Assembly (NCBI GenBank): GCA_964641615.1
Contig: CAZXNH010000002.1
Span: forward strand, 62,519-126,518
Length of the DNA: 64,000 nt
Direction of reading: 5' to 3'
From: an uncultured Ectothiorhodospiraceae bacterium
GTDB lineage: Bacteria > Pseudomonadota > Gammaproteobacteria > J044
The position numbers were made by a program, and so were the translations under genes. This document shows, piece after piece, positions 5,212 through 64,000 of the stretch. Numbering within the stretch: position 1 is the stretch's first letter; every line of letters starts with the position of its first letter. Under the pieces are notes generated by a model. That model was given only the letters and a program-made list of their open reading frames with translations, searched no databases and was not told where the DNA came from.

Positions 5212-6971
5212 TACATTTCTTCAGGGGCAGACACACCCAGCAGGCGCAGGCCATTATTGAGCACCTGGCGTGCTGCAAGGCAAAGATTCAGGCGCGCACT
5301 ACGCAACTCTTCTGCTTCAACCAGGAACTGGTGGGCGTTGTAATAGGTATGGAAGGCATTTGCCAGGTCCCTGAGGAAATGGACCAGCTGGTGTGGCTCA
5401 CGATTCAGGGCAGCAGACTCAACCACCTCGGGGAAGCGACCCAGCCTGTTAATCAGGTCTTCTTCATGAGACTCGGTCAGCAGATCCAGATGCTGGGCAC
5501 CGACAGCCACATCATGGCTCATACCCTTTTCGTCCAGCTGACGTAGCACGCTATGGATACGGGCATGGGCATACTGTATGTAATAGACCGGGTTGTCGGA
5601 TGACTGCGACTTGGCAAGGTCCAGATCAAAATCCAGGTGCTGCTCGCACTTGCGCATGACGTAGAAGAAACGCGCCGCATCGGCACCCACTTCCTGGCGC
5701 AGTTCGCGCAGGGTAACAAACTCACCCGAACGGGTAGACATCTGCATCTTCTCACCCTGGCTATAGAGATTGGCGAACTGAACCAGCAGCACCTCGAGCT
5801 TGCTGTCGTCATCACCCAGGGCTCTCAGGGCTGCGCGTACACGCGGTACATAGCCATGGTGGTCGGCACCCCAGACGTCTATGACATGATCAAAGCCGCG
5901 CTCAAGTTTTTCCATGTGGTAGGCGATGTCCGAGGCAAAATAGGTCGTCTGGCCGTTATCACGCTGCACCACACGGTCCTTCTCGTCACCAAAATCAGAG
6001 GACTTAAACCACAGGGCACCATCTTTTTCATAGACATGACCCGAATCGCGCAGGCGCTCGAGCATCTTGTTAACGGCACCACTCTCGGTCAGGCCGCGCT
6101 CAGAATACCACTCTTCGTAGGTCACCCCGAAGGCCTCGAGATCGGAACGAATATTATCGAGGATGGTATTCAGACCCAGTTCAAAGACATAACGGTAACG
6201 GTTGTCACCCAGCAGCTGTTTTGCCTTCGCGATCAGGGCATCAATATGCTCCTCTTTATCGCCGCCTTCAGGTTCATCGGCAGGAACACCCTCGTAAACA
6301 TCGACGATGGAATGACGGTAATCGTCGCCATGTTCGCGGTGCAGGGTCGCACCAATATCCCAGACGTAATCCCCTTTATAACCATTACTGGGGAAGACCA
6401 GTTCCTCACCAGCCAACTCCAGGTAACGCAACCAGACACTGGTGGCCAGGATATCCATCTGGCGGCCGGCATCATTCACGTAGTACTCGCGATGCACCTC
6501 GCAACCAATTGCCTCGAGCAGATCCGCAACCGTCGCGCCATAGGCCGCACCACGCCCGTGACCCACGTGCAGGGGGCCGGTCGGATTGGCAGAAACGAAT
6601 TCGACCTGTACGCGCTGGCCCTTGCCAACCTCACTACGGCCATAGGCCTCGCCGGACTCGAGCACGGTGCCGATAACGGAGCGGCCGGCACTGGGGTCGA
6701 TAAAGAAATTCATAAAACCAGGGCCTGCGATCTCGGTCTTCACCAGTGCTTCCATGGCTGGTAGACGCTCGATCAGGGCCTGGGCGACCTCTCGTGGATT
6801 GCGCCTGGCCAGTGTGGCCAGCTGCATGGCGACGTTACAGGCGAAGTCACCATGGTCCTTGTTCTTGCTATGGGTAATCTGTATCTGCCCCTCGAAAGGT
6901 TCGGACAAAATGCCATCTTCATGTAATCGCTGCAGTGCTTGAGCGACGAGTTTTTCCAGAGCGTGTTTCAA
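5211..6971 (-). CDS. argS: Arginine--tRNA ligase
   Basis: 586 aa class I aminoacyl-tRNA synthetase with the HIGH-type motif [13 protein letters not shown], and the typical ArgS N-terminal and anticodon-binding domains. Confidence 0.95.
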
Positions 6972-14063: not shown

Positions 14064-14422
14064 GTACTACTTTCTGTTGCATGGCGAGGGATTGCCATAC
14101 AACAGTCATACCCAAACATGTTCTGATCCCCGCAAGAATTGATAACCAGTTAACAATATTTTTAAAACTCTTCTACTCTTGTTTGACGACAAACAATTCT
14201 TGTCCTATTTTTAATAGTGTTAAAGGCAACTCACTCGAAAGGGTGAAGACGCAAAGTCACCGGTCTAAGGGAAAATCCTATGATAGCGGGGCCGCCAGAA
14301 TCTCCGGGCATATGTCCATCTGCGGTTTCCCCTCTTCAACGAATTCAACCCTGATACCGATGCAATAACAATACGCGTCCTGCTTGCCTTTGTACTCAAC
14401 ACAAAACAAAAGGATGTTAAGG

Positions 14423-14778: not shown

Positions 14779-15591
14779 ATGAACGTGATTTCAAAAGCCG
14801 TCGTTATTCTGATAATTGGCTTTTTCTCATCTGTGGGCCTGGCAAACAATGAAGAATTCCCAAATCGAAAGCTTTTTCCTGAAACCACACCTATAAGTCT
14901 CGATAAGTTAAAAGCCACAAAAAACGACACCATCATTATAGATGTACGCTCAGCCTATGAATTCGATACGCTTCATATCAAAGATGCGATAAATATTCCG
15001 CTAAATGCTTCCGACTTTACAAGCAGCCTTGAGAAGCTAAGAAAAACCAGCAACAAGCCCATCATCTTTTACTGTAACGGCAAGACCTGTAAGAAATCTT
15101 ATAAGGCAGCTCTAAAGGCTGTTAAGGCCAAGATCCCCTCAGTATTCGTTTTTGATGCTGGTATTTTTGACTGGGCCGAAGCATACCCGGAAGAAAGCAT
15201 TTTGCTTGGCAACCTTCTCAAGGATAAGGATCGACTAATTTCTTCAGCCGATCTTAAAGAACATATGCTTGATCATAAATCTTTTGTCAGGCAGGCAAAG
15301 TCGGACGATGTCATTATTCTCGACATACGTGACCCAGTACAACGAGACGGTCTACAGATTTTCGCCCATAGAGAAAACGTAGTACCTCTGGATAACGCCA
15401 AATTGCAAAAGTATGTAGACCAGGCAAAGGCCGAGAATAAAACCCTGATGATCTATGACGCGGTAGGTAAACAGGTACGCTGGTTACAGTACTACCTGGA
15501 GGATCAGCGCGCTTCTGATTATTACTTCATGAAGGGTGGTGCAGAAGCGCACTTTGAAGACTTTATTGCAAAGTATCGCAAGAAGCTTTAA
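14779..15591 (+). CDS. Secreted tandem rhodanese-domain sulfurtransferase (active first domain, second domain lacks the Cys)
   Basis: Signal peptide. Domain 1 carries the active-site loop YCNGKTCKKS after DVRSAYEFDTLHIKDAINIP. Domain 2 (ILDIRDP...MIYDAVGKQ) has no Cys. Confidence 0.7.
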   Translation: MNVISKAVVILIIGFFSSVGLANNEEFPNRKLFPETTPISLDKLKATKNDTIIIDVRSAYEFDTLHIKDAINIPLNASDFTSSLEKLRKTSNKPIIFYCNGKTCKKSYKAALKAVKAKIPSVFVFDAGIFDWAEAYPEESILLGNLLKDKDRLISSADLKEHMLDHKSFVRQAKSDDVIILDIRDPVQRDGLQIFAHRENVVPLDNAKLQKYVDQAKAENKTLMIYDAVGKQVRWLQYYLEDQRASDYYFMKGGAEAHFEDFIAKYRKKL

Positions 15592-50433: not shown

Positions 50434-51420
50434 GTGAACATGCACATTTGCACTTCCAGCCTGGGCGCTCTATGCATTCTGATCGGCATTTACCTGAATG
50501 CGGTATTCGCTGAGCCCCTGCCCCGTTGCCTATTCGTTTCTTCTTATCATCCCGGCTACGCCTGGTCAGATGGTGTAGAAAAGGGCCTGCGTGAAACTCT
50601 GGCCGGTCGTTGTGAGCTGGAACAATTTGATCTGGACACAAAGCGCATCAAGGACCCCGTACAGATCGAGAAAAAAATTACGGCTGTTCGCCGCCTTATT
50701 GAGTATTCAAGACCCGATGTAGTGATTACTGCAGATGACAATGCCGCCAAGTACCTGATTCAGCCCTATTACATCAATTCTGAAACGCCCTTTGTCTTTT
50801 GCGGTATCAACTGGTCAGCAGAAAATTATGGCTTCCCCGCCAGTAATGTGACCGGCATGATCGAGGTTGCCCCTATTAAACCTCTGATGGAATGGGCGCA
50901 ACGACTTGCGCCTCCTGCAAGGACAGCCACCTATATTGGCGCGGACACGCTGACAGAAAGGAAGAACTACGACCGGTACAAAGTTCTTGGGGAAAAAATG
51001 GGCATCGACATTACACCCCGCTTCGCTTCTACCAGTGCCAAATGGAAACAGCATTATATCGATGCTCAGCAATCAGACTTCGTCATAATGGGAAGCAACG
51101 CCGGCATCAATGACTGGCAGAGTGAAGCGCTTATCCAGTCACTGCCCGAACATACACAACGGCTGAGTATTACCGTGCATCAATGGATGATGCCTTACTC
51201 AGTCTTAGGATTTACCAAGCTCCCTGAAGAACAGGGCGTCTGGGCCGGGAAAACAGCCCTTGCTATTATTGAACAGGATATCAAACCCATTGATATCCCC
51301 GTTGTAGCCAATCGGCTATGGGATATCTGGATCAATTCACAACTGATCTCAGCAACCGGGATCGACCTGCCAGAAAGGCTTAAGCAAAAAGCAAAATTTA
51401 TGAGCGGGACTAGCCCATGA
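50434..51420 (+). CDS. Periplasmic substrate-binding-like protein (ABC_sub_bind/PF04392-like) upstream of a sensor GGDEF-EAL gene
   Basis: Signal peptide, about 300 aa with an alpha/beta periplasmic-binding-protein-like pattern. Its stop overlaps the start of the downstream GGDEF-EAL gene. Confidence 0.55.
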   Translation: MNMHICTSSLGALCILIGIYLNAVFAEPLPRCLFVSSYHPGYAWSDGVEKGLRETLAGRCELEQFDLDTKRIKDPVQIEKKITAVRRLIEYSRPDVVITADDNAAKYLIQPYYINSETPFVFCGINWSAENYGFPASNVTGMIEVAPIKPLMEWAQRLAPPARTATYIGADTLTERKNYDRYKVLGEKMGIDITPRFASTSAKWKQHYIDAQQSDFVIMGSNAGINDWQSEALIQSLPEHTQRLSITVHQWMMPYSVLGFTKLPEEQGVWAGKTALAIIEQDIKPIDIPVVANRLWDIWINSQLISATGIDLPERLKQKAKFMSGTSP

Positions 51421-54080
51421 CGCGAACCGAGTGGGGCTTCACGATTCTATTCACCCTGCTTTTTGCAGTTATTAGTGCCATTGTTTCGGGACATCTTACT
51501 CTTCAGGCAAGAACCCAGAGCTTTCAGTCAGATGCCCAGCGCATACAGGCCTCCCTGCTTGAGTCACTGGAATCCGCCCGTGGCCTGAGTGTCGCAATGG
51601 GGACACTCTACCGCACTCATGAACATATCGACTCCTCATCGTTTAGCTTTATTGCCACCGATATTCTTGATGCGAACACGGCACTCAGCACAATCACTTA
51701 TTCACCATGGCTAGAAGCCGGTCGTAAAGAGGCATTTGTTACAGCGCAGCGTGATGAAGGCTTTCCTACGTTCAGCATACAAACCCAGAAAGATTCAGAT
51801 GCCCAGACGTATTTCCTGCCATTACAGTTTATTGAGCCGTTTGATCCATTAAGTGCCCGATTCATGGGAGAAGATCTGTTTGGTAGAAAAGAGATTCAAC
51901 AGGACATCATTCAATCCATAGAGAGCAATGAATCCCGACTAGTACTTTTCAACTCACTGATGGACCATGATAACCAGCTTGCACTGATACACCCTGTTTA
52001 TTCAGGCATGGCATTACCTTCCAGTAAAGATATGCGCCTGCTTCACGCAAGGGGCCTGCTACTCTTTACGTTCAGTATCGACCAATGGGCACAGGGGCAG
52101 AACCTGACCCCGGACACAAAACTCTCACTCAATTACTGTGAAGATGAAGACGCAGAACTAACGCTAACTACCATGGAAAATTCAGGCTCTTCAGAATCCT
52201 CATTATTAAGACTCAATGAGAGCCTCGACGTCCCAACATTTCCCATTCGCATTCATATGGAAAAGGGGCTTGGATTCTCGGAGTTATCTCGTTCACCCGT
52301 CCCATTAGCAGTCATAGTCGCTACAGTCCTCGGGCTGATTTTTTCCCAGCTGATTATTAGCCGCAGGAGAATCAAGCTAAATGAGCAGGCCACAACCCTC
52401 GAGTTACAGAACATGCGGCGCCATGCCGAGACCACGCTTCAGTCTATTGGGGATGGCGTCATTACCGTGGACTCTTACCTGATTATTCGAAGCGTCAACT
52501 CAACAGCAGAAAAACTGCTCTGCAAAACAAGTGAAGAACTGGTCGGCTCCCCGGCAAACAGTGTTATCAAGCTCATCGATGAAAAAAGCGGCAAACCCCT
52601 CGGCCTCTTTAGTTCACGTGAGCACGATATTTCTCGAAACCACATTATTCTCTCTCGTTCAGGCAATACCGAACTTCCCGTCGAAATCGACATTCGTAAC
52701 CTGCATGGTAATCACGAAGAAGACATGGGTCAGGTTATTGTTCTACGGGATGTCAGCACAGAAAGAGAGCTCAGCAGGGAGCTTCGTTATCAGGCTACAC
52801 ATGACCTGCTTACCGGCCTGATGAACCGTTATGCCTTTGACCAGGAATTGCAGGCCGCACTTAAGTCTTCTCATCGCAATGGTTCGCATCATGTCCTGTG
52901 CTATCTCGATCTTGACCAGTTCAAACTAATTAACGATACCTGTGGCCACATGGCTGGAGATGAGGTTCTTAAACAGGTTACTTCCGTGATACACAATCAG
53001 CTCAGATCACAGGACATGTTTGCCAGGCTGGGCGGTGACGAGTTCGGAATCCTTCTGAGTAACTGTCCGCTTGATAAGGCCCAGGAAATCGCCGAACGGA
53101 TCAGATGCTCTATTCATGATTTTCGTTTTCCCTGGGAAGAAAAGGTTTTTGATCTGCGTGTAAGCATCGGCCTGGTACCCATCACCGATAACGCAGAAAG
53201 CATGACTGAACTGTTATCTGCTGCCGATGTTGCCTGTTACACTGCTAAAGATCGCGGCAGAGATCAGATATATACCTATCAGAGTGATGATGAATCTATC
53301 TCTGAAAGGCATGGGCAGATGCAATGGCTACCAATACTCCAGGATGCCCTAAGAGAAAATCATTTCACATTAAACCTGCAACCCATTCTCCCAATCTCCA
53401 GCAACAAGCTGCCCCGGATATATGAATTCCTGATCAGGCTAAATCACCCTGATAACACGCCCAGCCTTCCAGGAAGCTTTTTACCCGCTGCTGAACGCTA
53501 TGACCTGATGCGTGAAATTGATACCTGGGTTATTTATCACTGCTTTGAACTGATTCATTCCTACAGGCTGCCAGATAATGTCTGTTTCTCGATCAACCTG
53601 TCTGGCCAGTCTCTGACCGATCCAATGCTGGTTACCCGAATTCTGCAGGCTAATGAGGCTTACCCGGTTGACCCTTCCCGCATTTATTTTGAAATCACTG
53701 AAACCTCGGCGATAACCAGCCTCGCGGCGACCACTGAATTAATCAACAGGCTACGTGCACTGGACTATCGCTTTGCGCTGGATGACTTCGGTTCCGGCTT
53801 CAGCTCATATTCTTATCTGAGCAAGCTACCAGTAGACCTGTTAAAGATTGACGGACAGTTTGTCCGGGATATTAATGAGAATAAAATTCACCATACCCTT
53901 GTTAAAGGCATCCGCGAAATTGCCGAGGTCCTGAACGTGGCAACCATAGCCGAGTTTGTCGAATCGCAGGAAATTGTTGAATCAATCGATAAGCTGGGTA
54001 TTGAATATATGCAGGGTTACCATTGTGGCCGTCCGGACTCAGCAAAAACTATACTCGAAAATATCTCTGTCACTGAATAA
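51417..54080 (+). CDS. Membrane-anchored sensor GGDEF-EAL protein: periplasmic CHASE-like domain, TM helix, PAS, GGDEF, EAL
   Basis: N-terminal TM helix, a periplasmic domain of about 280 aa, a second TM helix, PAS, GGDEF ([12 protein letters not shown]) and EAL ([37 protein letters not shown]). Confidence 0.9.
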
Positions 54081-55599: not shown

Positions 55600-56217
55600 A
55601 TGAAGACACGTCTGCTCCTTGCCCTTTTCCTCACCCTGGCAGTCAGCCAGGTTCAGGCAGCCCCTTATTACTACGGCAGTCCAGGCCACTATCCTTCACT
55701 GCCTAATTATCAGCAGGAAACCCCTGCGGACCTGCTCGAAGACGGCATAGCACGCCTGCAGGCCTTTATTGAGCAAAAGGGCATCAACGATCCTGAAATA
55801 CTTACGGCCTTCCTCAACGAACAGATCGCTCCCTTCTTCGATTTTGACCGCATGGCCCAGATGGTAGGTGGTCGTTACTACCAGCAACTGGGTCCTACCG
55901 AACGCGCCCTGTTCAAGAGCCGTCTGCAGACCATGTTCTTCTCGGCACTGGGTCGCAACCTGGGCGCCTATTCCAGTCCCAAACCCCGTGTCGATTTCAT
56001 GCGCCCTCGCCAGCGTGGCTATAACGAGATCGAGGTGGCTGCACGCATCCTGCCCGCTAATGGCTACCCGGTGCGCCTGGTGTTCCGCTTTGCCAACGGC
56101 AAGGAAGGCTGGAAAGTCTATGATGTCTCGTCCAACGGTCAGAGCGCGGTGCTTTACTACCGAAAATACGTCATGGAGCAAATTCGCCGTTATGGCCCAA
56201 GGGCCCTGCTGAACTGA
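55600..56217 (+). CDS. MlaC/Ttg2D-family periplasmic phospholipid-binding protein homolog
   Basis: Signal peptide MKTRLLLALFLTLAVSQVQA and a Ttg2D-like pattern (IAPFFDFDRMAQMVGGRYYQQL...RLQTMFFSALGRNL...VYDVSSNGQSAVLYYRKYV). A GGAGGA RBS precedes it. Confidence 0.7.
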   Translation: MKTRLLLALFLTLAVSQVQAAPYYYGSPGHYPSLPNYQQETPADLLEDGIARLQAFIEQKGINDPEILTAFLNEQIAPFFDFDRMAQMVGGRYYQQLGPTERALFKSRLQTMFFSALGRNLGAYSSPKPRVDFMRPRQRGYNEIEVAARILPANGYPVRLVFRFANGKEGWKVYDVSSNGQSAVLYYRKYVMEQIRRYGPRALLN

Positions 56218-56286: not shown

Positions 56287-59200
56287 ATGCGCCTCTTGTC
56301 CATTGCCTACTTACTTTTCAGCCTGATCCTGCCTGTCCATGCCACTGAACTCAATATCCCCGACTCACTGGCGCCCTGGCAGGGCTGGGTACTCTTCCCG
56401 CATGAAGATATTCACTGCCTGCATGAACATAATACGAATAAGCCCAGGATCTGTGCCTGGCCCGACCAGCTAATCCTGGACCTGGGCCAGACCGAGGGCC
56501 AGTTCGAACAGAACTGGGAGGTATATACCGAGTCCTGGATAAGGCTGCCAGGCTCAGGTCGGTACTGGCCCCAGGAGGTTATGGTCAATGATCAGCCAGC
56601 TAGCGTTGTCTCGCGCAAAGGGCTGCCTGCACTTCATCTGAGCAAGGGGCAATACCGGATCAGTGGCAAACTGTTCTGGGACCGGATGCCGGAGCAGTTA
56701 GGCATCCCACCGGAAACCGGGCTGATTAGTCTGCAGATCAATGGAAAGTCGATCAGTAACCCAAACATCTCGCAGCGTGGCCAGCTATGGCTGCAAAACC
56801 AGGAGCAACAGGAGCGCGCTGAAGATAGTAACAGCCTGGATGTACAGGTCTTCCGGCTGGTTGAGGATGGTTTGCCACAGAAGGTCACGACCCAGATCGA
56901 TCTCACCATATCCGGCAAGACCCGGGAAATACGTCTTGAAAACATGTTACCTGAGGGCTTTACGGCATTACGCCTGACCTCCCAGCTACCCGCCAAGCTC
57001 AACGATGACGATAGTCTGCAGGTCCAGCTACGCCCCGGCCGCTGGACCATCAGCATCCAGGCGCGTTCGGACCAGGAAATCAATCCGATCGTACTGCAGG
57101 AGCATGCCGAACCCTGGCCCGAGCAGGAAGTCTGGGTATTCCAGGCCAGGCAGGACCTGCGCCAGGTCGAACTGACCGGCCTGACCCGCATAGATCCGCG
57201 CCAGACACGACTACCGCCCCAGTGGCAACAACTGCCCGCCTTTCGTGTACTGCCCGGCGAGGGCATGGGATTCAAGCTCATCCGCCGCGGCGCCGAAAAG
57301 ACCTTCCAGGATCAGCTCTCACTTCAGCGTCAGCTCTGGCTAGACTTCAATGGCATGGGCTACACCCTGCAGGACAATATCAACGGACAGGTGCGCAATA
57401 CCTGGCGCCTGTCGACGCAAAGTGACCTAAAACTTGGCCAGGTCAAGATCAATAATCAGCCCCAGTTTATTACCCGCCTGCCAGGCGACGCACAGGACGG
57501 CATAGAAATACGTCGTGGCAACCTGAACCTGCAGGCCGACAGCCGTTATACACAGGACCTCAAGGACCTGCCCGCCAACGGCTGGAACCTGGACTTCCAG
57601 TCAGTCGAGGCCACCCTGCACCTGCCGCCGGGCTGGCGCCTGTTCTCGGCCACCGGCGTCGATAATGTTCCCCGTACCTGGGTACAGCGCTGGTCCTTGC
57701 TCGATATCTTCCTGGTCCTGATTGCCGCTATCGCCAGCGCCCGCCTGTTTGGCCCGGTCTGGGGAGGCGTGGTCTTACTGACCCTGACCCTGAGCTGGCA
57801 TGAACCCGGCGCCCCCCAGTACAGCTGGCTGAACCTGCTGGCCGCCATTGCCCTGATTCGCCTGTTACCCAGTGGCAAGATTCGCCGCCTGCTGCAGATT
57901 TATCGTGGCTTCGCCCTCATCCTCATTATCCTTATCGGTCTGCCCTTCATCGTGAACGAAGTTCGCACTGGTATTTACCCGCAACTGGAAAACCCCTGGT
58001 CGGTAAGCTATGCCAGCCCGGTACGCAGTCTGCCCAGCTCGGTTGCCCAGGTCGCCGAGGATGTCGCCATGGAGGCTGGCGTGGTTGAAAAGTCCATCTC
58101 CAGGTCCGAACCAAAATCTTATTACCGTAACAAACAGAGCCTGGATGAGATCGATCCCAATGCACTGGTACAGACCGGCCCTGGCCTGCCGGACTGGAAA
58201 TGGAACAGCATTCCGCTGCGCTGGAATGGCCCGGTCGCCCAGGGTCAGGAAATGCACCTGGCGCTGATCCCGCCACTGGCCGTCAGCGCCATCAAGATGA
58301 TCCTGTCATTACTCCTGGTGGTTATGGCCTGGCGTCTTTCCGACACCGGCAAGCTGCGCCTGCCCAGGCTCAATGGCACACATGTCGCCATCCTGCTGGC
58401 ACCGCTGCTGGTAACAGGACTGGTCGACAAGCCTGCGCATGCCGGACAGTGGCCATCACCCGAGATTCTCGAACAGCTTGAACAACGGCTTTTGCGCGCC
58501 GACCGCTGTTTACCGGAGTGCGCCCAGATTGCCAACGCACAGCTCGACCTGGATGAAAACGTACTGACGCTCAAGCTTGAGGTCCACGCCGACACCGACG
58601 TTGCCATTCCGGTACCCGGGCATGCCATGGGCTGGACACCGGCCCTGGTGGAGATGGACGGTCAGCCTGCCGGCCTATTGTATCGCTCTGCCCAGGATGT
58701 GCTCTGGATACCTGCCAGCGCTGGGGTGCACCATCTCGTCCTCGCCGCTCCACTGCCTCCGGGTGACCGGCACCAGGTACACTTCCCCCTCAAACCCAAG
58801 CGCATCGATGTTGCCGCTGAGGGCTGGACCGTGGTGGGCCTGCTCGATGACGGCAGGATGGAGCCCAGCCTGGAGCTGATCCGACAGCAGACCAGCAATG
58901 GTGGTGATGCAAAACCGGATGAGATTCAGCCCACCCCCCTGCCCGGATTCGCACAATTACGCCGCACCCTGCACCTGGGACTGGACTGGCATGTCAGTAC
59001 CACGGTGATACGGGCCACCCCGGCAGACAGTTCCTTTATCCTTGAACTGCCCCTGCTTGATGGAGAGTCAGTAACCACGCCCGGCGTACAGGTTGAAGAT
59101 GGCTATGTGCAGGTCAGCATGCCGCCGGGAGAGAGACAGTTCAGCTGGGAATCCCGACTCGAAAAACAGGAACAGATACGCCTGGCCGCCTCGCCATCTC

Positions 59201-60354
59201 TGCAGCCAGGGCAAACCTCCTGGATCGAGACCTGGCAGCTTGATGTCAGCCCGGTATGGCATGTCCAGTTCACGGGCATTCCCGTGATTCACCAGGCAGA
59301 TGCCTCCGGGCAATGGCTGCCAGAATGGCGCCCCTGGCCCGGTGAAGAAGTGCTGGTTAAGGTGATTCGCCCCGAGGGGGTTGTGGGCCAGACCCTGACC
59401 ATCGATCACAGCAAGCTGACCTCAACACCGGGCAAACGATCCTCGGAACACAGCCTGGAACTGAGCCTGCGTAGCAGCCAGGGCGGCCAGCATGTGCTTG
59501 GTTTACCTGAAGATGCCGTGCTGCAGGAGGCGACTATCGACGGCCGCAGCCACAACCTGAATATCGAGCAGGGCAAGCTAGTCCTGCCCATAGAACCCGG
59601 CAGCCACAAGGTCAGGCTCACCTGGCGACAGGAGGCTGGCCATGCCACCTGGTTTAACACTCCATCTGTCTACCTGGGTACGCCGGCCGTGAACACCAAT
59701 CTCCTGGTCAAACAGGGCACAGATCGCTGGGTGCTATTTACCGGTGGCCCGCGCCTCGGCCCCGCCGTGCTGTTCTGGGGCATAGTCCTGGTGCTTGTCC
59801 TGATCAGCCTGGGCCTTGGCCTGATCAAGCTTACACCGCTGAAGAGCTGGCAGTGGTTCCTGCTGTTGATCGGGCTGTCACAGACACCGGTATGGCTGGG
59901 GCTGGTCGTCGTCGGCTGGCTGCTAATCCTCGGTGCACGTAATCGCCTGGAGACGCCCATCGACCCGGGGATACATAACGCCATGCAACTGGGCATTGCC
60001 CTGTTTACCCTGATTGCCATTACCTCGCTGTTCATTGCCGTCAAACAGGGCCTGCTTGGCCTGCCCGAGATGCAGATCTCAGGCAATGGCTCTAGTGCCA
60101 GCCAGCTAAAGTGGTACCTGGACCGTACTGATGGACAGATGCCCGAGGCCTGGATAATGTCCCTGCCACTACTGGCCTATCGTCTTCTGATGCTGGCCTG
60201 GGCGCTGTGGCTGGCCTTTTCACTACTTAACTGGTTACGCTGGGGCTGGCAGTCAATGAATGTTGGTGGGCTCTGGCACAACATCCCAAAAAAGCCACGC
60301 AAAACCCGGGGCTCTCGGAGGGCAAAAAAAGATGATGCAGAAAACGTGGAATAA
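56287..60354 (+). CDS. Uncharacterised giant (1355 aa) polytopic membrane protein with large periplasmic domains
   Basis: Signal peptide, then about 450 aa periplasmic, a TM cluster (about residues 470-570), about 600 aa periplasmic, a C-terminal cluster of 5-6 TM helices, and a Lys/Arg-rich tail. No motif I recognise. Confidence 0.55.
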   Translation: MRLLSIAYLLFSLILPVHATELNIPDSLAPWQGWVLFPHEDIHCLHEHNTNKPRICAWPDQLILDLGQTEGQFEQNWEVYTESWIRLPGSGRYWPQEVMVNDQPASVVSRKGLPALHLSKGQYRISGKLFWDRMPEQLGIPPETGLISLQINGKSISNPNISQRGQLWLQNQEQQERAEDSNSLDVQVFRLVEDGLPQKVTTQIDLTISGKTREIRLENMLPEGFTALRLTSQLPAKLNDDDSLQVQLRPGRWTISIQARSDQEINPIVLQEHAEPWPEQEVWVFQARQDLRQVELTGLTRIDPRQTRLPPQWQQLPAFRVLPGEGMGFKLIRRGAEKTFQDQLSLQRQLWLDFNGMGYTLQDNINGQVRNTWRLSTQSDLKLGQVKINNQPQFITRLPGDAQDGIEIRRGNLNLQADSRYTQDLKDLPANGWNLDFQSVEATLHLPPGWRLFSATGVDNVPRTWVQRWSLLDIFLVLIAAIASARLFGPVWGGVVLLTLTLSWHEPGAPQYSWLNLLAAIALIRLLPSGKIRRLLQIYRGFALILIILIGLPFIVNEVRTGIYPQLENPWSVSYASPVRSLPSSVAQVAEDVAMEAGVVEKSISRSEPKSYYRNKQSLDEIDPNALVQTGPGLPDWKWNSIPLRWNGPVAQGQEMHLALIPPLAVSAIKMILSLLLVVMAWRLSDTGKLRLPRLNGTHVAILLAPLLVTGLVDKPAHAGQWPSPEILEQLEQRLLRADRCLPECAQIANAQLDLDENVLTLKLEVHADTDVAIPVPGHAMGWTPALVEMDGQPAGLLYRSAQDVLWIPASAGVHHLVLAAPLPPGDRHQVHFPLKPKRIDVAAEGWTVVGLLDDGRMEPSLELIRQQTSNGGDAKPDEIQPTPLPGFAQLRRTLHLGLDWHVSTTVIRATPADSSFILELPLLDGESVTTPGVQVEDGYVQVSMPPGERQFSWESRLEKQEQIRLAASPSLQPGQTSWIETWQLDVSPVWHVQFTGIPVIHQADASGQWLPEWRPWPGEEVLVKVIRPEGVVGQTLTIDHSKLTSTPGKRSSEHSLELSLRSSQGGQHVLGLPEDAVLQEATIDGRSHNLNIEQGKLVLPIEPGSHKVRLTWRQEAGHATWFNTPSVYLGTPAVNTNLLVKQGTDRWVLFTGGPRLGPAVLFWGIVLVLVLISLGLGLIKLTPLKSWQWFLLLIGLSQTPVWLGLVVVGWLLILGARNRLETPIDPGIHNAMQLGIALFTLIAITSLFIAVKQGLLGLPEMQISGNGSSASQLKWYLDRTDGQMPEAWIMSLPLLAYRLLMLAWALWLAFSLLNWLRWGWQSMNVGGLWHNIPKKPRKTRGSRRAKKDDAENVE

Positions 60355-60889
60355 CTATCTGGCAGGGCTGTTCCTGCTATGCCTGCCGCTTTCAGCCTGG
60401 CCCTGGTCTCAGTGCGAGACCTCGCAACAAATCGTACATAACCAGTTGCAGGCTGCAGTACAGACGAAAGGGGTGGCCGGTGGATGCAGTCTCGTAAACA
60501 TCGATGTTGCCATAGGCCCTCGCCATGGTTCGCCGCTACGAATGACCCTGCGTGGCAGCGATCCACTGATGCACATGGAATTTACCGACCTGGACCGCAA
60601 CCGACAGCCCGAGCTGCTGCTGATCACGCGCAACGCGGGTTCCGGTAGTTATGGCGGTGCCACACTCATCATTAATGAAGGCGAAGAACTCAAGCCCATA
60701 GCCCTGCCTGATGTAGATAGCGAGGCACAGCCCGGATACCGGGGGCATGACCGAATCTTCGCTTATCGCGATGTCCTGATCCGCGAATACCCCGTCTTTG
60801 GTGAAAAAGATCCAAACTGCTGTCCCAGAGGAGGATTCAGGGAACTGGTTTATCGCTTCGACGGCAGTCAGTTTGTCCTTGAAAAGTGA
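60332..60889 (+). CDS. Hypothetical secreted protein (about 185 aa), translationally overlapping the giant membrane protein gene
   Basis: Signal peptide MMQKTWNNYLAGLFLLCLPLSAWP, four Cys residues, Gly-rich segment (ITRNAGSGSYGGATLII). The ATG at 60332 overlaps the upstream stop by 23 nt. Confidence 0.5.
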   Translation: MMQKTWNNYLAGLFLLCLPLSAWPWSQCETSQQIVHNQLQAAVQTKGVAGGCSLVNIDVAIGPRHGSPLRMTLRGSDPLMHMEFTDLDRNRQPELLLITRNAGSGSYGGATLIINEGEELKPIALPDVDSEAQPGYRGHDRIFAYRDVLIREYPVFGEKDPNCCPRGGFRELVYRFDGSQFVLEK

Positions 60890-61000: not shown

Positions 61001-62860
61001 CTATCCCTGTTTCTGTAGCCAGGCTTCAAGATCATATTTTCCAATCGGCTTACTGATAAAATAACCCTGCAATTTATCCACGCTCATCTGATCCAGCAGG
61101 TCCAGAGTCGACTGGTCTTCCACGCCTTCTGCCACGACCTGGCAATCGAGATTATGACCCAGCTCAATAACCGTCTTAACAACGGCCCGATCGGTCTGAT
61201 CTGTACACATATCGGAAATAAAGCTTCGATCAATCTTCAGTGCATCCACCGGTAGTTTCTTCAGGTAATTCAGGGAAGAAAAGCCGGTTCCAAAATCATC
61301 GATCGCAATCTGTACGCCGAGCTCACTGAGCGCACTCAGTATCTTCCCTGCTCGGACAAGGTCCTGCATCAATGCCGTTTCTGTTATCTCGAGCTGGACC
61401 TTTTCGGCAGCGACACCATGCATCTGTAAAAGTGCCTGTATATCATCAGGCAGAGAAAGATTTTGAATACTGTATACAGAAAGATTCACACTGACACCGA
61501 AGTCATACCCCTGCTTGTTCCAGCGAGCCAGGTCCTTCAAGGACTGATCCAGTATTTGCATGGTCAGAACATTGATAAGCCCCATTTGCTCTGCCATCGA
61601 TATAAATTCATCCGGTGGTATCCCACCAAGCTCGGGGTGATCCCAACGCGCAAGCGCTTCTACATAGGCTAAATCATGTGATGACGTATCCACAACAGGC
61701 TGATAGGCCAGGTGAATATTCTGGTTTTTAACAGTATCACGCAGGTCACTCATCAGGCGCAGACGACGCACAGTATGTTTATTCTGTTCAGGGTCATAGA
61801 GTGCAAAACCGGATTGAGATTGCTTCGCCTGGTACATTGCAATATCAGCATATTTCATAAGATCATCAGCTTCCTGTGCATGTTCCGGAAAGATGCTGAT
61901 ACCGATGCTCGCCTTACTCTCTGTAGTGATGTTGTCAATAACAAACGGCTTACTCATCGCATACAGGATACGGTTAGCACATAATTCTGCACCCTTATAA
62001 TCTGTATGCGGCAATAATACCGCGAACTCATCTCCTCCAAGGCGCGCTATTGAGTCATTGAGTCGCACTGACTCTTTCAGGCGCACACTCACAACCTTTA
62101 ACAACTTGTCTCCAAACTGGTGTCCAAGAGTGTCATTGATTTCCTTGAAGCGATCCAGGTCAATCAGAAACAAGGCAAAACTCTGCTGGTATCTTTTTGC
62201 ATCGAATAGAATCCGCTCTATACGATCATTGAGCAATGTGCGATTTGGTAACCCGGTTAACGTGTCATGCAGGGCAAGATGCTGAAGTTGCAGGTTTTTC
62301 TTATCCAGCTCACGCGAGATCTTGGAGCTCAGGATGAGGCCTATCCAGACTGCAACCCACAGGATTACAAATCCTGAAGTGACCAGGCGAAGCTTGAGTG
62401 TTGATGCAATATCTGAATCGCCAGTACTGGCCGGTTTGAGCATGACGAGCTCATACTGTACATCTGGCAATGGGCTGACTGCCCAGTAATACTGCCTATC
62501 GGATAACTCAATTAAACTGTGATGATCTGCTGAAATCTCTTTCAGCCTTTCCAGAAGCACATCATAGGCAAATTCTGCTTCACCCGAACGATAGAGCAAC
62601 TCACCATCTTTTTGTATCAACAGAATAGAATCTTGCCCAAAGAACCTCTGTTGCAAGCGATCAAGATAAGCCTGGGTATCCCGCTGATTGTCCGCCAGTG
62701 TAATTTGCTGGGAGATGTTCCCTGAAAATCGCGTCAGTACCTCGGTTAACTGCTCATTTCGACTATCTAAAAGCTGACGATACGCAAGCACGCCAAAGAC
62801 AATCTGTGCGAGTATAGTGACCCCTAAGATAGATAGCAGTATCTGCTTATTGAGCGTCAT
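61001..62860 (-). CDS. Membrane sensor GGDEF-EAL protein (periplasmic domain between two TM helices)
   Basis: TM helices at about residues 8-28 and 160-180. GGDEF (RLGGDEFAVLL). EAL motifs (LEITETAL, DDFGTGFSSLNYL, KIDRSFISD, EGVED). Confidence 0.9.
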   Translation of the reverse strand: MTLNKQILLSILGVTILAQIVFGVLAYRQLLDSRNEQLTEVLTRFSGNISQQITLADNQRDTQAYLDRLQQRFFGQDSILLIQKDGELLYRSGEAEFAYDVLLERLKEISADHHSLIELSDRQYYWAVSPLPDVQYELVMLKPASTGDSDIASTLKLRLVTSGFVILWVAVWIGLILSSKISRELDKKNLQLQHLALHDTLTGLPNRTLLNDRIERILFDAKRYQQSFALFLIDLDRFKEINDTLGHQFGDKLLKVVSVRLKESVRLNDSIARLGGDEFAVLLPHTDYKGAELCANRILYAMSKPFVIDNITTESKASIGISIFPEHAQEADDLMKYADIAMYQAKQSQSGFALYDPEQNKHTVRRLRLMSDLRDTVKNQNIHLAYQPVVDTSSHDLAYVEALARWDHPELGGIPPDEFISMAEQMGLINVLTMQILDQSLKDLARWNKQGYDFGVSVNLSVYSIQNLSLPDDIQALLQMHGVAAEKVQLEITETALMQDLVRAGKILSALSELGVQIAIDDFGTGFSSLNYLKKLPVDALKIDRSFISDMCTDQTDRAVVKTVIELGHNLDCQVVAEGVEDQSTLDLLDQMSVDKLQGYFISKPIGKYDLEAWLQKQG

Positions 62861-62936: not shown

Positions 62937-63155
62937 TTAGCTTTTATCTTCGGCGCCGGTATTGATTCCAGGAATCATATACAGCGGGCAGAAACGGGTA
63001 ACTGCTGTAACAAGCGCTATCACACCAATACCAATCAGGATATAGGAACTCAGTGCATCGGTAACCAACTGCTTATCTATCAGGCCTATATACAGCGCCA
63101 CTAAGCCAATACCCAGTCGTAATACCATGTCTAATTTGCCGATGTTCTTTACCAT
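62937..63155 (-). CDS. DUF2892 (YgaP-like) small two-TM membrane protein
   Basis: 72 aa (DMVLRLGIGLVALYIGL...FCPLYMIPGINT), the pattern typical of the rhodanese-associated YgaP C-terminal domain. Confidence 0.65.
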   Translation of the reverse strand: MVKNIGKLDMVLRLGIGLVALYIGLIDKQLVTDALSSYILIGIGVIALVTAVTRFCPLYMIPGINTGAEDKS

Positions 63156-63452
63156 CTATTGTTCCCCTTCTATGGATTAACAAAAAACTATGCTCTGGAA
63201 GCCTGATGAGACAAATATATTATTCTTATTGGGCTTCTACTTATACTTGATATCTAACGAAAAATACACGAAATATCCTTACTAAAACTCGTGCTTTCGT
63301 ACTATCTATTACAGCACAGCATAGAAACAACATAACAGGCACACCATCTATTCAGGTAAATGACCCCCTTCTGTTTTCGTTGAATGCAGAAATAATAATT
63401 GAGATCAGCGCGAAATCGACCAGGATCAGAAGCCCTGATGCCTATACGGAAT

Positions 63453-63476
63453 AAAAAAGGGCCGTTTAAACGGCCC
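63453..63476 (-). terminator. Rho-independent terminator of the TusE/DsrC-like gene
   Basis: Perfect palindrome GGGCCGTTTAAACGGCCC (63459-63476), followed on the minus strand by a 6-T run (63453-63458). Confidence 0.6.
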
Positions 63477-63504
63477 CTGGGAAGTCCCGCTTTAAAACGC
63501 GGTG

Positions 63505-63843
63505 TTAATGAACACTACCGAATGAAAGGTCCAGGGAATCTCCCGGTTCTTCAATACCCAATAACTGGCAGCCCTGATGGATCGGACCACCTGGGAAAAG
63601 TTCATACAGATGCTTCTTGCCTCCCTGCTCCTCAAATTGTTCCTGCAATGCCTGTGTCAGCTCTCGTCCGGATGAGTCGTCATCCTCGGCCACGAACTGG
63701 AAGATAATCTTTAACACACCCCAGTGTTCTGCAGTGAGGTCGATACCGGCTGCTTCGGCTCGACTCACAACACCTTGCTTATCGATTTCAGGCTTTGGTT
63801 CCTTGGTGTTATCGACACCCCATTCATTAATATCAGCGTTCAC
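63505..63843 (-). CDS. TusE/DsrC/DsvC-family protein with a noncanonical C-terminus (CysB-position Cys present; terminal GLPKPxGC replaced by an acidic ...DLSFGSVH tail)
   Basis: AEHWGVLKIIFQFV...KKHLYELFPGGPIHQGCQLLGIEEPGDSLDLSFGSVH. Compare TusE ...[27 protein letters not shown]. Confidence 0.65.
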   Translation of the reverse strand: MNADINEWGVDNTKEPKPEIDKQGVVSRAEAAGIDLTAEHWGVLKIIFQFVAEDDDSSGRELTQALQEQFEEQGGKKHLYELFPGGPIHQGCQLLGIEEPGDSLDLSFGSVH

Positions 63844-63910
63844 AATAACTCCTTCAGAAAATTACTCATAGGTAATGATTCTTTGTATGAATCTCGACTA
63901 TTCGTAAAAA

Positions 63911-63937
63911 CGATGTGCCGGTTTTGCCGGCACATCG
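63911..63937 (-). terminator. Rho-independent terminator between the two tandem DsrC-like paralogs
   Basis: 11-bp stem CGATGTGCCGG / CCGGCACATCG, followed on the minus strand by TTTTT (63906-63910). Confidence 0.55.
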
Positions 63938-63953
63938 AATAATGGAAGACAGC

Positions 63954-64000
63954 TTAATGTACGCTACCAAATGAAAGGTCGTCACAATCCGCTGGCTTAG
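63954..64000 (-). CDS. Second TusE/DsrC-like paralog; only the C-terminal 15 codons are in the window
   Basis: Minus-strand reading gives ...KPADCDDLSFGSVH* with the stop at 63954-63956. It shares the DLSFGSVH terminus with the adjacent paralog. Confidence 0.45.
   Translation of the reverse strand, partial: KPADCDDLSFGSVH

Follow-up and report, generated by a model that had tools for sequence, protein, structure and literature searches.

Two genes of the DsrC/TusE family lie in tandem on the minus strand at the very end of a 64,000-nucleotide (nt) stretch of contig CAZXNH010000002.1 (assembly GCA_964641615.1) from an uncultured Ectothiorhodospiraceae bacterium. This stretch was analysed as a whole and is called the window in the following. 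The downstream gene, paralog B, is a complete open reading frame (ORF) of 112 amino acids (aa) with DsrC fold at 63505..63843 (−). It starts with a GTG at 63843, stops at 63505-63507 and is preceded by a Shine-Dalgarno sequence GAAGGAG at 63849..63855 (−), which lies 5 nt 5' of the GTG and is kept in the related contigs L087 and L088. The protein ends with ...HQGCQLLGIEEPGDSLDLSFGSVH. Of the upstream gene, paralog A, the window holds only the 3' end at 63954..64000 (−), that is, 14 codons at 63957..63998 encoding KPADCDDLSFGSVH and a stop at 63954..63956, while the rest lies beyond the window edge. The fragment of 14 aa matched the family profile with E = 0.011.

An identical paralog B protein is present on many public contigs, and the full second paralog was recovered from near-identical ones. 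Full-length paralog A has 120 aa and stands directly upstream of B in L087, L088 and L091-L096. L091 is 95.7% identical to the window over 10.5 kb and runs past its edge, and L087 and L088, which hold the whole tandem, are 93% identical over the aligned 0.5 kb. In L087, L088 and L091, the C-terminus of A reads ...MFPGGPIRQGSMIAGLPKPADCDDLSFGSVH, the last 14 residues being the same as those of the window fragment. The distant relative L001 possesses the same tandem, with a B protein of about 70% identity and a paralog A ending with ...QGCRIGGLPEPADCTDLSFGSVH. The arrangement was met only in the lineage of the window (L001, L087, L088, L091-L096).

A terminator between the two copies had been postulated in a preliminary description of this DNA, and a hairpin with the features of an intrinsic terminator is indeed located at 63911..63937 (−). 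It has an 11-bp stem with 8 GC pairs and a T-run, a folding energy of -23.6 kcal/mol and a z-score of -5.8 against shuffled sequences; its stem is kept in L087, L088 and L091 with a variable loop. A second terminator-like hairpin (9-bp stem, 6 GC pairs, T-run) lies 3' of paralog B at 63457..63478 (−) and is kept in L088 and L091. A consensus scan found no sigma-70-like promoter upstream of A or of B, and an Rfam search gave no match in or near the tandem locus. Between the A genes of L001 and L091, synonymous sites are saturated (dS about 2.5). The element TTGGTCTATATAT is common to the regions upstream of both genes (about 2434..2447 in L001 and about 9444..9457 in L091). It may be a putative promoter -10 region or an operator, no sigma-70 promoter having been called there.

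The DsrC arm is retained and lengthened

The assignment of A and B to the DsrC/TusE family, as originally proposed, is borne out by Pfam, profile and fold evidence. Paralog B reached 47.4 bits with the Pfam DsrC model PF04358 over residues 29-101 (cutoff 24.9) and thus passed the superfamily threshold. Its scores remained below the cutoffs of NCBIfam TIGR03342 (44.9, cutoff 53.5) and of the TusE equivalog NF008562 (43.2, cutoff 191); against the extended-tail family profile, its E-value was 2.8e-37. A profile built from 16 family members was searched against all Protein Data Bank (PDB) sequences and matched DsrC of A. vinosum best (1YX3, E = 3.7e-22), followed by the DsrC proteins of A. fulgidus and Pyrobaculum and by a DsrC-family sulfurtransferase. 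Two AlphaFold2 runs were made, the first on 16 and the second on 90 aligned sequences. In both runs, the helical core was predicted with a local confidence (pLDDT) of 85-91, and the last two residue blocks reached 56 and 37 with 16 sequences and 46 and 33 with 90 sequences. The tail is therefore predicted to be flexible in the monomer. A Foldseek search against the PDB again gave 1YX3 as the top hit, with a probability of 1.00, a template modelling (TM) score of 0.58 and a root-mean-square deviation of 2.3 Å over 78 columns. DsrC of A. vinosum thus has the same fold and is the best match both in sequence and in structure, with the EHW helix, the LFPxGP motif and the AGLPxP flexible arm in common.

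In bona fide DsrC, the penultimate residue is a Cys that is strictly conserved (CysA; Cys111 in A. vinosum) (PMC3397948). In every PDB alignment, this residue fell on profile position 111, with nine profile positions remaining beyond it, so that the arm is kept and extended rather than replaced by an acidic extension as had been supposed. Position 111 corresponds to Ser103 in paralog B (63535..63537, (−)), aligned with the penultimate Cys of 1YX3, 1SAU, 1JI8 and 7SYB, and to the Cys of PKPADC in paralog A. Beyond it, A and B have nine residues and canonical DsrC has one. The extension of B consists of Leu104 (63532-63534) and the tail motif DLSFGSVH (residues 105-112; 63508..63531, (−)), and A ends with PKPADC-DDLSFGSVH; its Cys is at the catalytic position, but it is not penultimate. 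The arms preceding the extension read GIEEPGDS in B and GLPKPADC in A, compared to the canonical GLPKPTGC. None of the solved structures among the PDB matches bears such a tail extension. The LFPxGP...AGLPxP arm and the globular DsrC fold are consequently retained, and the arm is lengthened by nine residues.

The position of the second DsrC cysteine, CysB, lies ten residues before CysA. It is occupied by Cys92 in B (63568..63570, (−); profile alignment to 1YX3 and 1SAU), in agreement with the earlier placement of this residue, by Ser in paralog A of L087 and L091, and by Cys in paralog A of L001. The resulting patterns are Cx10S plus extension for B, Sx10C plus extension for A of the window's lineage and Cx10C for A of L001. 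The preliminary description had held that the catalytic Cys is missing from both copies. This is correct for B with its Ser103; for A, the Cys of PKPADC at the CysA position had been overlooked. Unlike DsrC, neither A nor B has a penultimate Cys. The motif AGLPKPTGC[AV], a criterion defining DsrC (PMC8477390), is absent from both, as B reads LGIEEPGDSL... and A reads AGLPKPADCD..., each with more than one mismatch and neither at the C-terminus.

The extended-tail clade

The tail is real. At the 3' end, the other two reading frames contain stops and no canonical GLPKP..C, and the same proteins are present in independent ENA, Logan, JGI and NCBI assemblies. The ratio of nonsynonymous to synonymous substitutions (dN/dS, Nei-Gojobori) was 0.03 for B (window against L087) and 0.02-0.08 for A. 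Four codons differ in the tail of A between the window and L091 (for Leu, Ser, Phe and Gly), and all four differences are synonymous. The tail is conserved under purifying selection. About 1 Mb of retrieved DNA contained 8,216 stop-to-stop ORFs with a length of 60 aa or more; the tail motif closes 93 of these, and all 93 are DsrC-like. A generic C-terminal degron or shared linear motif was discarded, as the motif ended no ORF in this DNA that was not DsrC-like.

Within the window, the DNA encoding the last nine residues is nearly identical between A (63957..63983, GACCTTTCATTTGGTAGCGTACAT) and B (63508..63534, GACCTTTCATTCGGTAGTGTTCAT), both on the minus strand, and paralog A of L091 uses other synonymous codons in its tail than paralog A of the window. 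From these sequences, gene conversion of one tail by the other may be suggested for the window strain.

The clade was defined here by exactly 31 residues from LFP to the C-terminus and by the ending D-x-[SG]-[FY]-G-[ST]-[VA]-x; both A and B show these features. A profile search of 1.84 billion representative proteins yielded 1466 matches at E<=1e-3, of which 406 reached E<=1e-10. In about 100 of the 150 best matches, the distance from LFP to the C-terminus was exactly 31 residues and the ending was ...D-x-[SG]-F-G-[ST]-[VA]-x. Among 90%-identity clusters, a profile search matched 566 at E<=1e-10. A scan of the GTDB species genomes, in which the best locus was about 50% identical, confirmed 112 loci. 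The 80 loci retained from these belong to metagenome-assembled genomes (MAGs) of Ectothiorhodospiraceae, Acidiferrobacterales, Thiobacillus, Sulfuricella, Gallionella, Sideroxydans, Hyphomicrobiaceae, Rhodoblastus, Sedimenticolaceae and others. Named carriers include Thiohalophilus sp. and Candidatus Thiodiazotropha. An IMG/VR search found no phage-borne relative, and a phage auxiliary gene was dropped as an explanation on this ground.

The residue counts over 164 distinct tails mark the tail, and not the thiols, as the conserved element. Its Asp is present in 144 of 164, the Ser/Gly position is conserved in 156, Phe in 149 and the Ser/Thr after Gly in 137. Gly occurs in all 164, but it had also served as a selection criterion for these tails. 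The last position is variable (Q, H, A, F, E, M). At the CysA position, Ser (71) and Ala (56) prevail over Cys (11) and Thr (11), and at the CysB position Cys was counted 84 times and Ser 54 times. The combination of Cys at both CysB and CysA was found in 9/164 tails and Ser/Cys in 2/164; S/S, S/A and C/A are common, and many members (S/S, S/A, A/A) have a Cys at neither position. The clade as a whole can thus dispense with the two cysteines on which the chemistry of DsrC and TusE is based; neither is conserved throughout, unlike in DsrC.

A rough neighbour-joining (NJ) tree was rooted with a canonical sequence. In it, all 169 sequences that descend from the last ancestor shared by A and B have the extended tail, and none is canonical. 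The distance between A and B in this tree is 0.63, hence their duplication is old. A and B thus fall into a large clade from which canonical DsrC and TusE are excluded, in line with the earlier suggestion of a distinct subfamily with an unusual C-terminus. On these comparisons, the clade is distinct, widespread and probably functionally distinct within the DsrC/TusE family. A DsrC-like tail extension was not found described in the searchable literature, and the clade is apparently undescribed so far.

Automated annotation often names the members 'tRNA 2-thiouridine synthesizing protein E', or else generically TusE/DsrC. TusE of the E. coli tRNA 2-thiouridine relay, a partner of TusBCD and MnmA that carries a persulfide at its penultimate Cys, belongs to the same superfamily, and paralog A of the window's lineage likewise has Ser at CysB and Cys at CysA. 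In contrast to TusE, the scores are below the NF008562 and TIGR03342 cutoffs, the Cys of paralog A is followed by nine further residues, a Cys is missing from the CysA position in most of the clade and no tusBCD genes are nearby. The TusE label is likely wrong for the Cys-less members. Judged by description only, A and B resemble the extra TusE/DsrC/DsvC paralogs of sulfur oxidisers, such as Alvin_0028, _0345, _0732 and _1508 of A. vinosum, in being additional stand-alone genes. The role of those paralogs 'remains to be established' (PMC3368242), and differential expression was reported for them (PMC11267869).

Further variation was seen at the C-termini of related proteins. Members from Ectothiorhodospiraceae (L007-L010, match at about 6001..6285) carry an extra Cys within the tail motif, S[RK]DCGFGSVQ, two residues before F-G. 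DsrC-family paralogs with other non-canonical tails were encountered in L027 (122..796), L066 (4412..4726), L024 (857..1492, (−)) and L012 (11051..11452, (−)); tails ending with ...AGMKRPRAWSTG and ...AGMRKPLKLMLDL occur beside the canonical ...GLPKPTGCV in some of the same genomes. Sulfur and iron oxidisers thus possess several types of DsrC-like tails. In addition, the proteins P0017 (541 aa), P0019-P0021 and P0028 contain two to five tandem DsrC-like domains, P0017 having five matched stretches. Several of the multi-domain proteins end with ...PxPxDCID, which is neither the canonical nor the extended tail.

Gene neighbourhood and window context

The gene order in L091-L094, which belong to the lineage of the window, is DJC28_CD-like, NAD-binding dehydrogenase, A, B, YgaP-like transmembrane protein (DUF2892) and GGDEF-EAL protein. 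L001 has the same two genes upstream of the tandem, with glcDEF-like genes downstream of B instead. In the window, the YgaP-like gene (62937..63155, (−)) lies directly 3' of paralog B and encodes 72 aa with a conserved Cys (TRFCPLY). The spacer of 349 nt between the two genes (63156..63504) is AT-rich with a GC content of 0.40 compared to 0.54 for the window.

For a broader comparison, ORFs from 86 loci were clustered all against all, and no neighbour gene was widely common among them. With the DsrC-like gene itself and spurious overlapping antisense ORFs excluded, the largest neighbour clusters comprised at most 9 loci, or 12-14 by tblastn, and were lineage-specific (ThiF/TcdA-like, NYN, DUF924, ABC-F, XdhC and pirin). 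In 14 loci, pirin was located within 1-5 kb, but neither its distance nor its orientation was constant. On properly called contigs (Thiohalophilus, Thiodiazotropha and alphaproteobacterial), the gene is monocistronic amid unrelated genes that are often on the opposite strand. A conserved operon partner was dismissed on account of these small, lineage-specific clusters and the monocistronic genes. Domain fusions were likewise of no help as a hint to function, as only isolated cases (CBS with DsrC-like; Fer2/FAD reductase with DsrC-like) were observed that are perhaps merged gene calls.

The window represents an ordinary chromosome of gammaproteobacterial type with argS, hslU, ubiB, sucAB, glyQS, priA, coaBC and many c-di-GMP proteins. 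It contains neither sulfur-oxidation genes nor a further DsrC-family gene within its 64 kb. Bona fide DsrC is found in genomes that also have dsrAB. In the window, no dsr genes are among the annotated ORFs; no Dsr domains were detected in the 29 annotated window ORFs or the L091 flank (64 kb and 10 kb covered), and tusBCD genes were not found in the window or this flank.

Further features of the window were recorded. A c-di-GMP-I riboswitch (RF01051) at 14215..14299 (+) scored 66.7 bits against a gathering score of 35 and lies about 480 nt upstream of the ORF at 14779..15591 (+). GGDEF/EAL proteins are plentiful (28193..30619, 51417..54080 and 61001..62860). The ORF at 56287..60354 (+) encodes 1355 aa with several hydrophobic stretches and had no Pfam match at E<=0.001. 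It adjoins MlaC-like (55600..56217) and weakly PliI-like (60260..60889) ORFs, an arrangement that is also present in L001 (7930..12000).

Possible functions and meaning of the extended tail

The flexible arm of DsrC is known to dock into partner proteins (PMC3397948; PMC8477390). The extended tail is strongly conserved and is not predicted to fold in the monomer, and it thereby matches the expected look of a partner-docking arm. The interpretation tentatively preferred here, to which slightly less than half of our confidence is given, is that A and B are Cys-independent adaptors or modulators which dock their long arm into a putative partner. An extended-tail protein would then serve as Cys-independent adaptor, modulator or pseudo-substrate, and its long C-terminal arm would be inserted into the partner like the arm of DsrC into DsrAB, DsrK or DsrEFH. 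Such docking would need no obligatory persulfide chemistry. The two old tandem paralogs, each with its own terminator hairpin and with complementary single Cys (A at the CysA position, B at the CysB position), may serve different partners or may act together.

Several points weigh against a role as Cys-independent adaptors. CysB is still present in about half of the members, and 7%, paralog A included, have a Cys at the CysA position, so thiol chemistry may matter in subsets of the clade. The low pLDDT of the tail is no proof of disorder, and ORF calling on the GTDB loci was crude. The distribution is skewed to sulfur and iron oxidisers. This may point to a role linked to sulfur, which the adaptor model leaves unspecified. 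The adaptor function is derived from sequence and predicted structure, and the partner is putative.

A more far-reaching version of docking appears unlikely, though it is worth stating. The clade would represent a new class of the DsrC fold with the D-x-S-F-G-S-V-x peptide as its active element, which would plug or regulate a key lithotrophic enzyme, for instance as a block or gate in the channel with which a DsrAB, DsrK/HdrD-like or DsrEFH-like partner binds DsrC. A and B would here form a heteromeric 'split DsrC' redox switch.

The two paralogs could also divide a sulfur relay between them. Paralog A would carry a persulfide on Cys111, which B would resolve or receive by its Cys92 as a 'split DsrC', and the tail would only tune the specificity for partners. 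This is possible but doubtful. It would agree with the Cys of A exactly at the CysA-aligned position and that of B at the CysB position, with the tandem kept in L001, L087, L088 and L091-L096, with the YgaP-like gene after B and with the enrichment of the family in sulfur oxidisers. However, paralog A of L001 has both Cys, thus the complementarity of A and B is not conserved, and most of the clade has no Cys at the CysA position, as the few C/C and S/C tails given above illustrate. The reactive Cys of established DsrC/TusE proteins is penultimate (PMC3397948), whereas it is nine residues from the end here, and the scores are below the NCBIfam TusE and TIGR03342 cutoffs. As neither Cys position is conserved clade-wide, a different sulfur-transfer mechanism, one of two roles considered in the preliminary description, cannot be the function of the whole family.

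The other role considered there was that of a regulator, that is, RspA-like transcriptional regulators binding DNA with the helix-turn-helix-like (HTH-like) lobe of the DsrC fold. Stand-alone genes would fit a regulator, and the Cys-less RspA group was reportedly proposed as regulatory by Venceslau et al. in 2014. RspA, compared by description only, also has the DsrC fold without the canonical Cys pair, as do the many clade members without either Cys, which would fall into this loosely defined group, and the family has been described as DsrC/TusE/RspA (PMC8477390). RspA is distinguished by the loss of both conserved Cys, whereas A and B keep one Cys each, and the most conserved element of the clade is the flexible tail rather than a helix surface. 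With an isoelectric point (pI) of 4.4 and a net charge of about -14, paralog B is a poor candidate for DNA binding; the median pI of 98 family members is 5.3, and 64/98 are below 6. DNA binding by A and B is thus considered improbable.

Very unlikely, in our view, is a tail that serves as a processing or modification site, either cleaved after F-G, so that adenylation or thiocarboxylation could take place at the exposed C-terminal Gly, or modified at the conserved Ser/Thr. The Gly in every tail (though selected by the filter), the near-invariant Phe and the variable last residue would suit such a site. ThiF/TcdA-like E1 genes occur within a few kb in 12 loci of Ectothiorhodospiraceae-like, Chromatiales and other gammaproteobacterial MAGs. 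Against this, neither a protease nor an E1 gene is conserved beside the clade genes, a single Gly is found instead of the GG that is typical of ThiS/MoaD-type carriers, and the S/T and V past the Gly are also conserved, which is unexpected for a discarded propeptide. Finally, a frameshift, an assembly error or decaying paralogs as origin of the odd C-terminus, of which the frameshift or sequencing artefact had been named at the outset as what could undo the description, is refuted with next to no doubt by the agreement of independent assemblies, the low dN/dS, the lack of a canonical tail in other frames and the same tail length in hundreds of homologues.

Two short motifs were also looked at and rejected. 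The SLDLSF of B recalls the beta-clamp-binding motif (QLxLF / QLxLxL), but the Leu two residues before the conserved Asp is S/T/V/A/R family-wide. The G-D-S-L-D of B recalls the phosphopantetheine site of acyl carrier proteins (ACP), but the Asp before Ser varies (G/D/Y/N) and the fold is not that of ACP.

In sulfur-cycling communities, genes of the DsrC family rank with the most abundant and most strongly expressed ones. They are routinely counted as 'dsrC/tusE' in metagenomes, and the genomes of sulfur oxidisers hold several unexplained DsrC paralogs. Hundreds of these proteins form a coherent clade that is marked by a tail extension of nine residues and not by a catalytic Cys. This flags a systematic mis-annotation, as Cys-less proteins are named after the tRNA 2-thiouridine pathway, and it provides a simple sequence rule by which the clade can be told from true DsrC and TusE in surveys.

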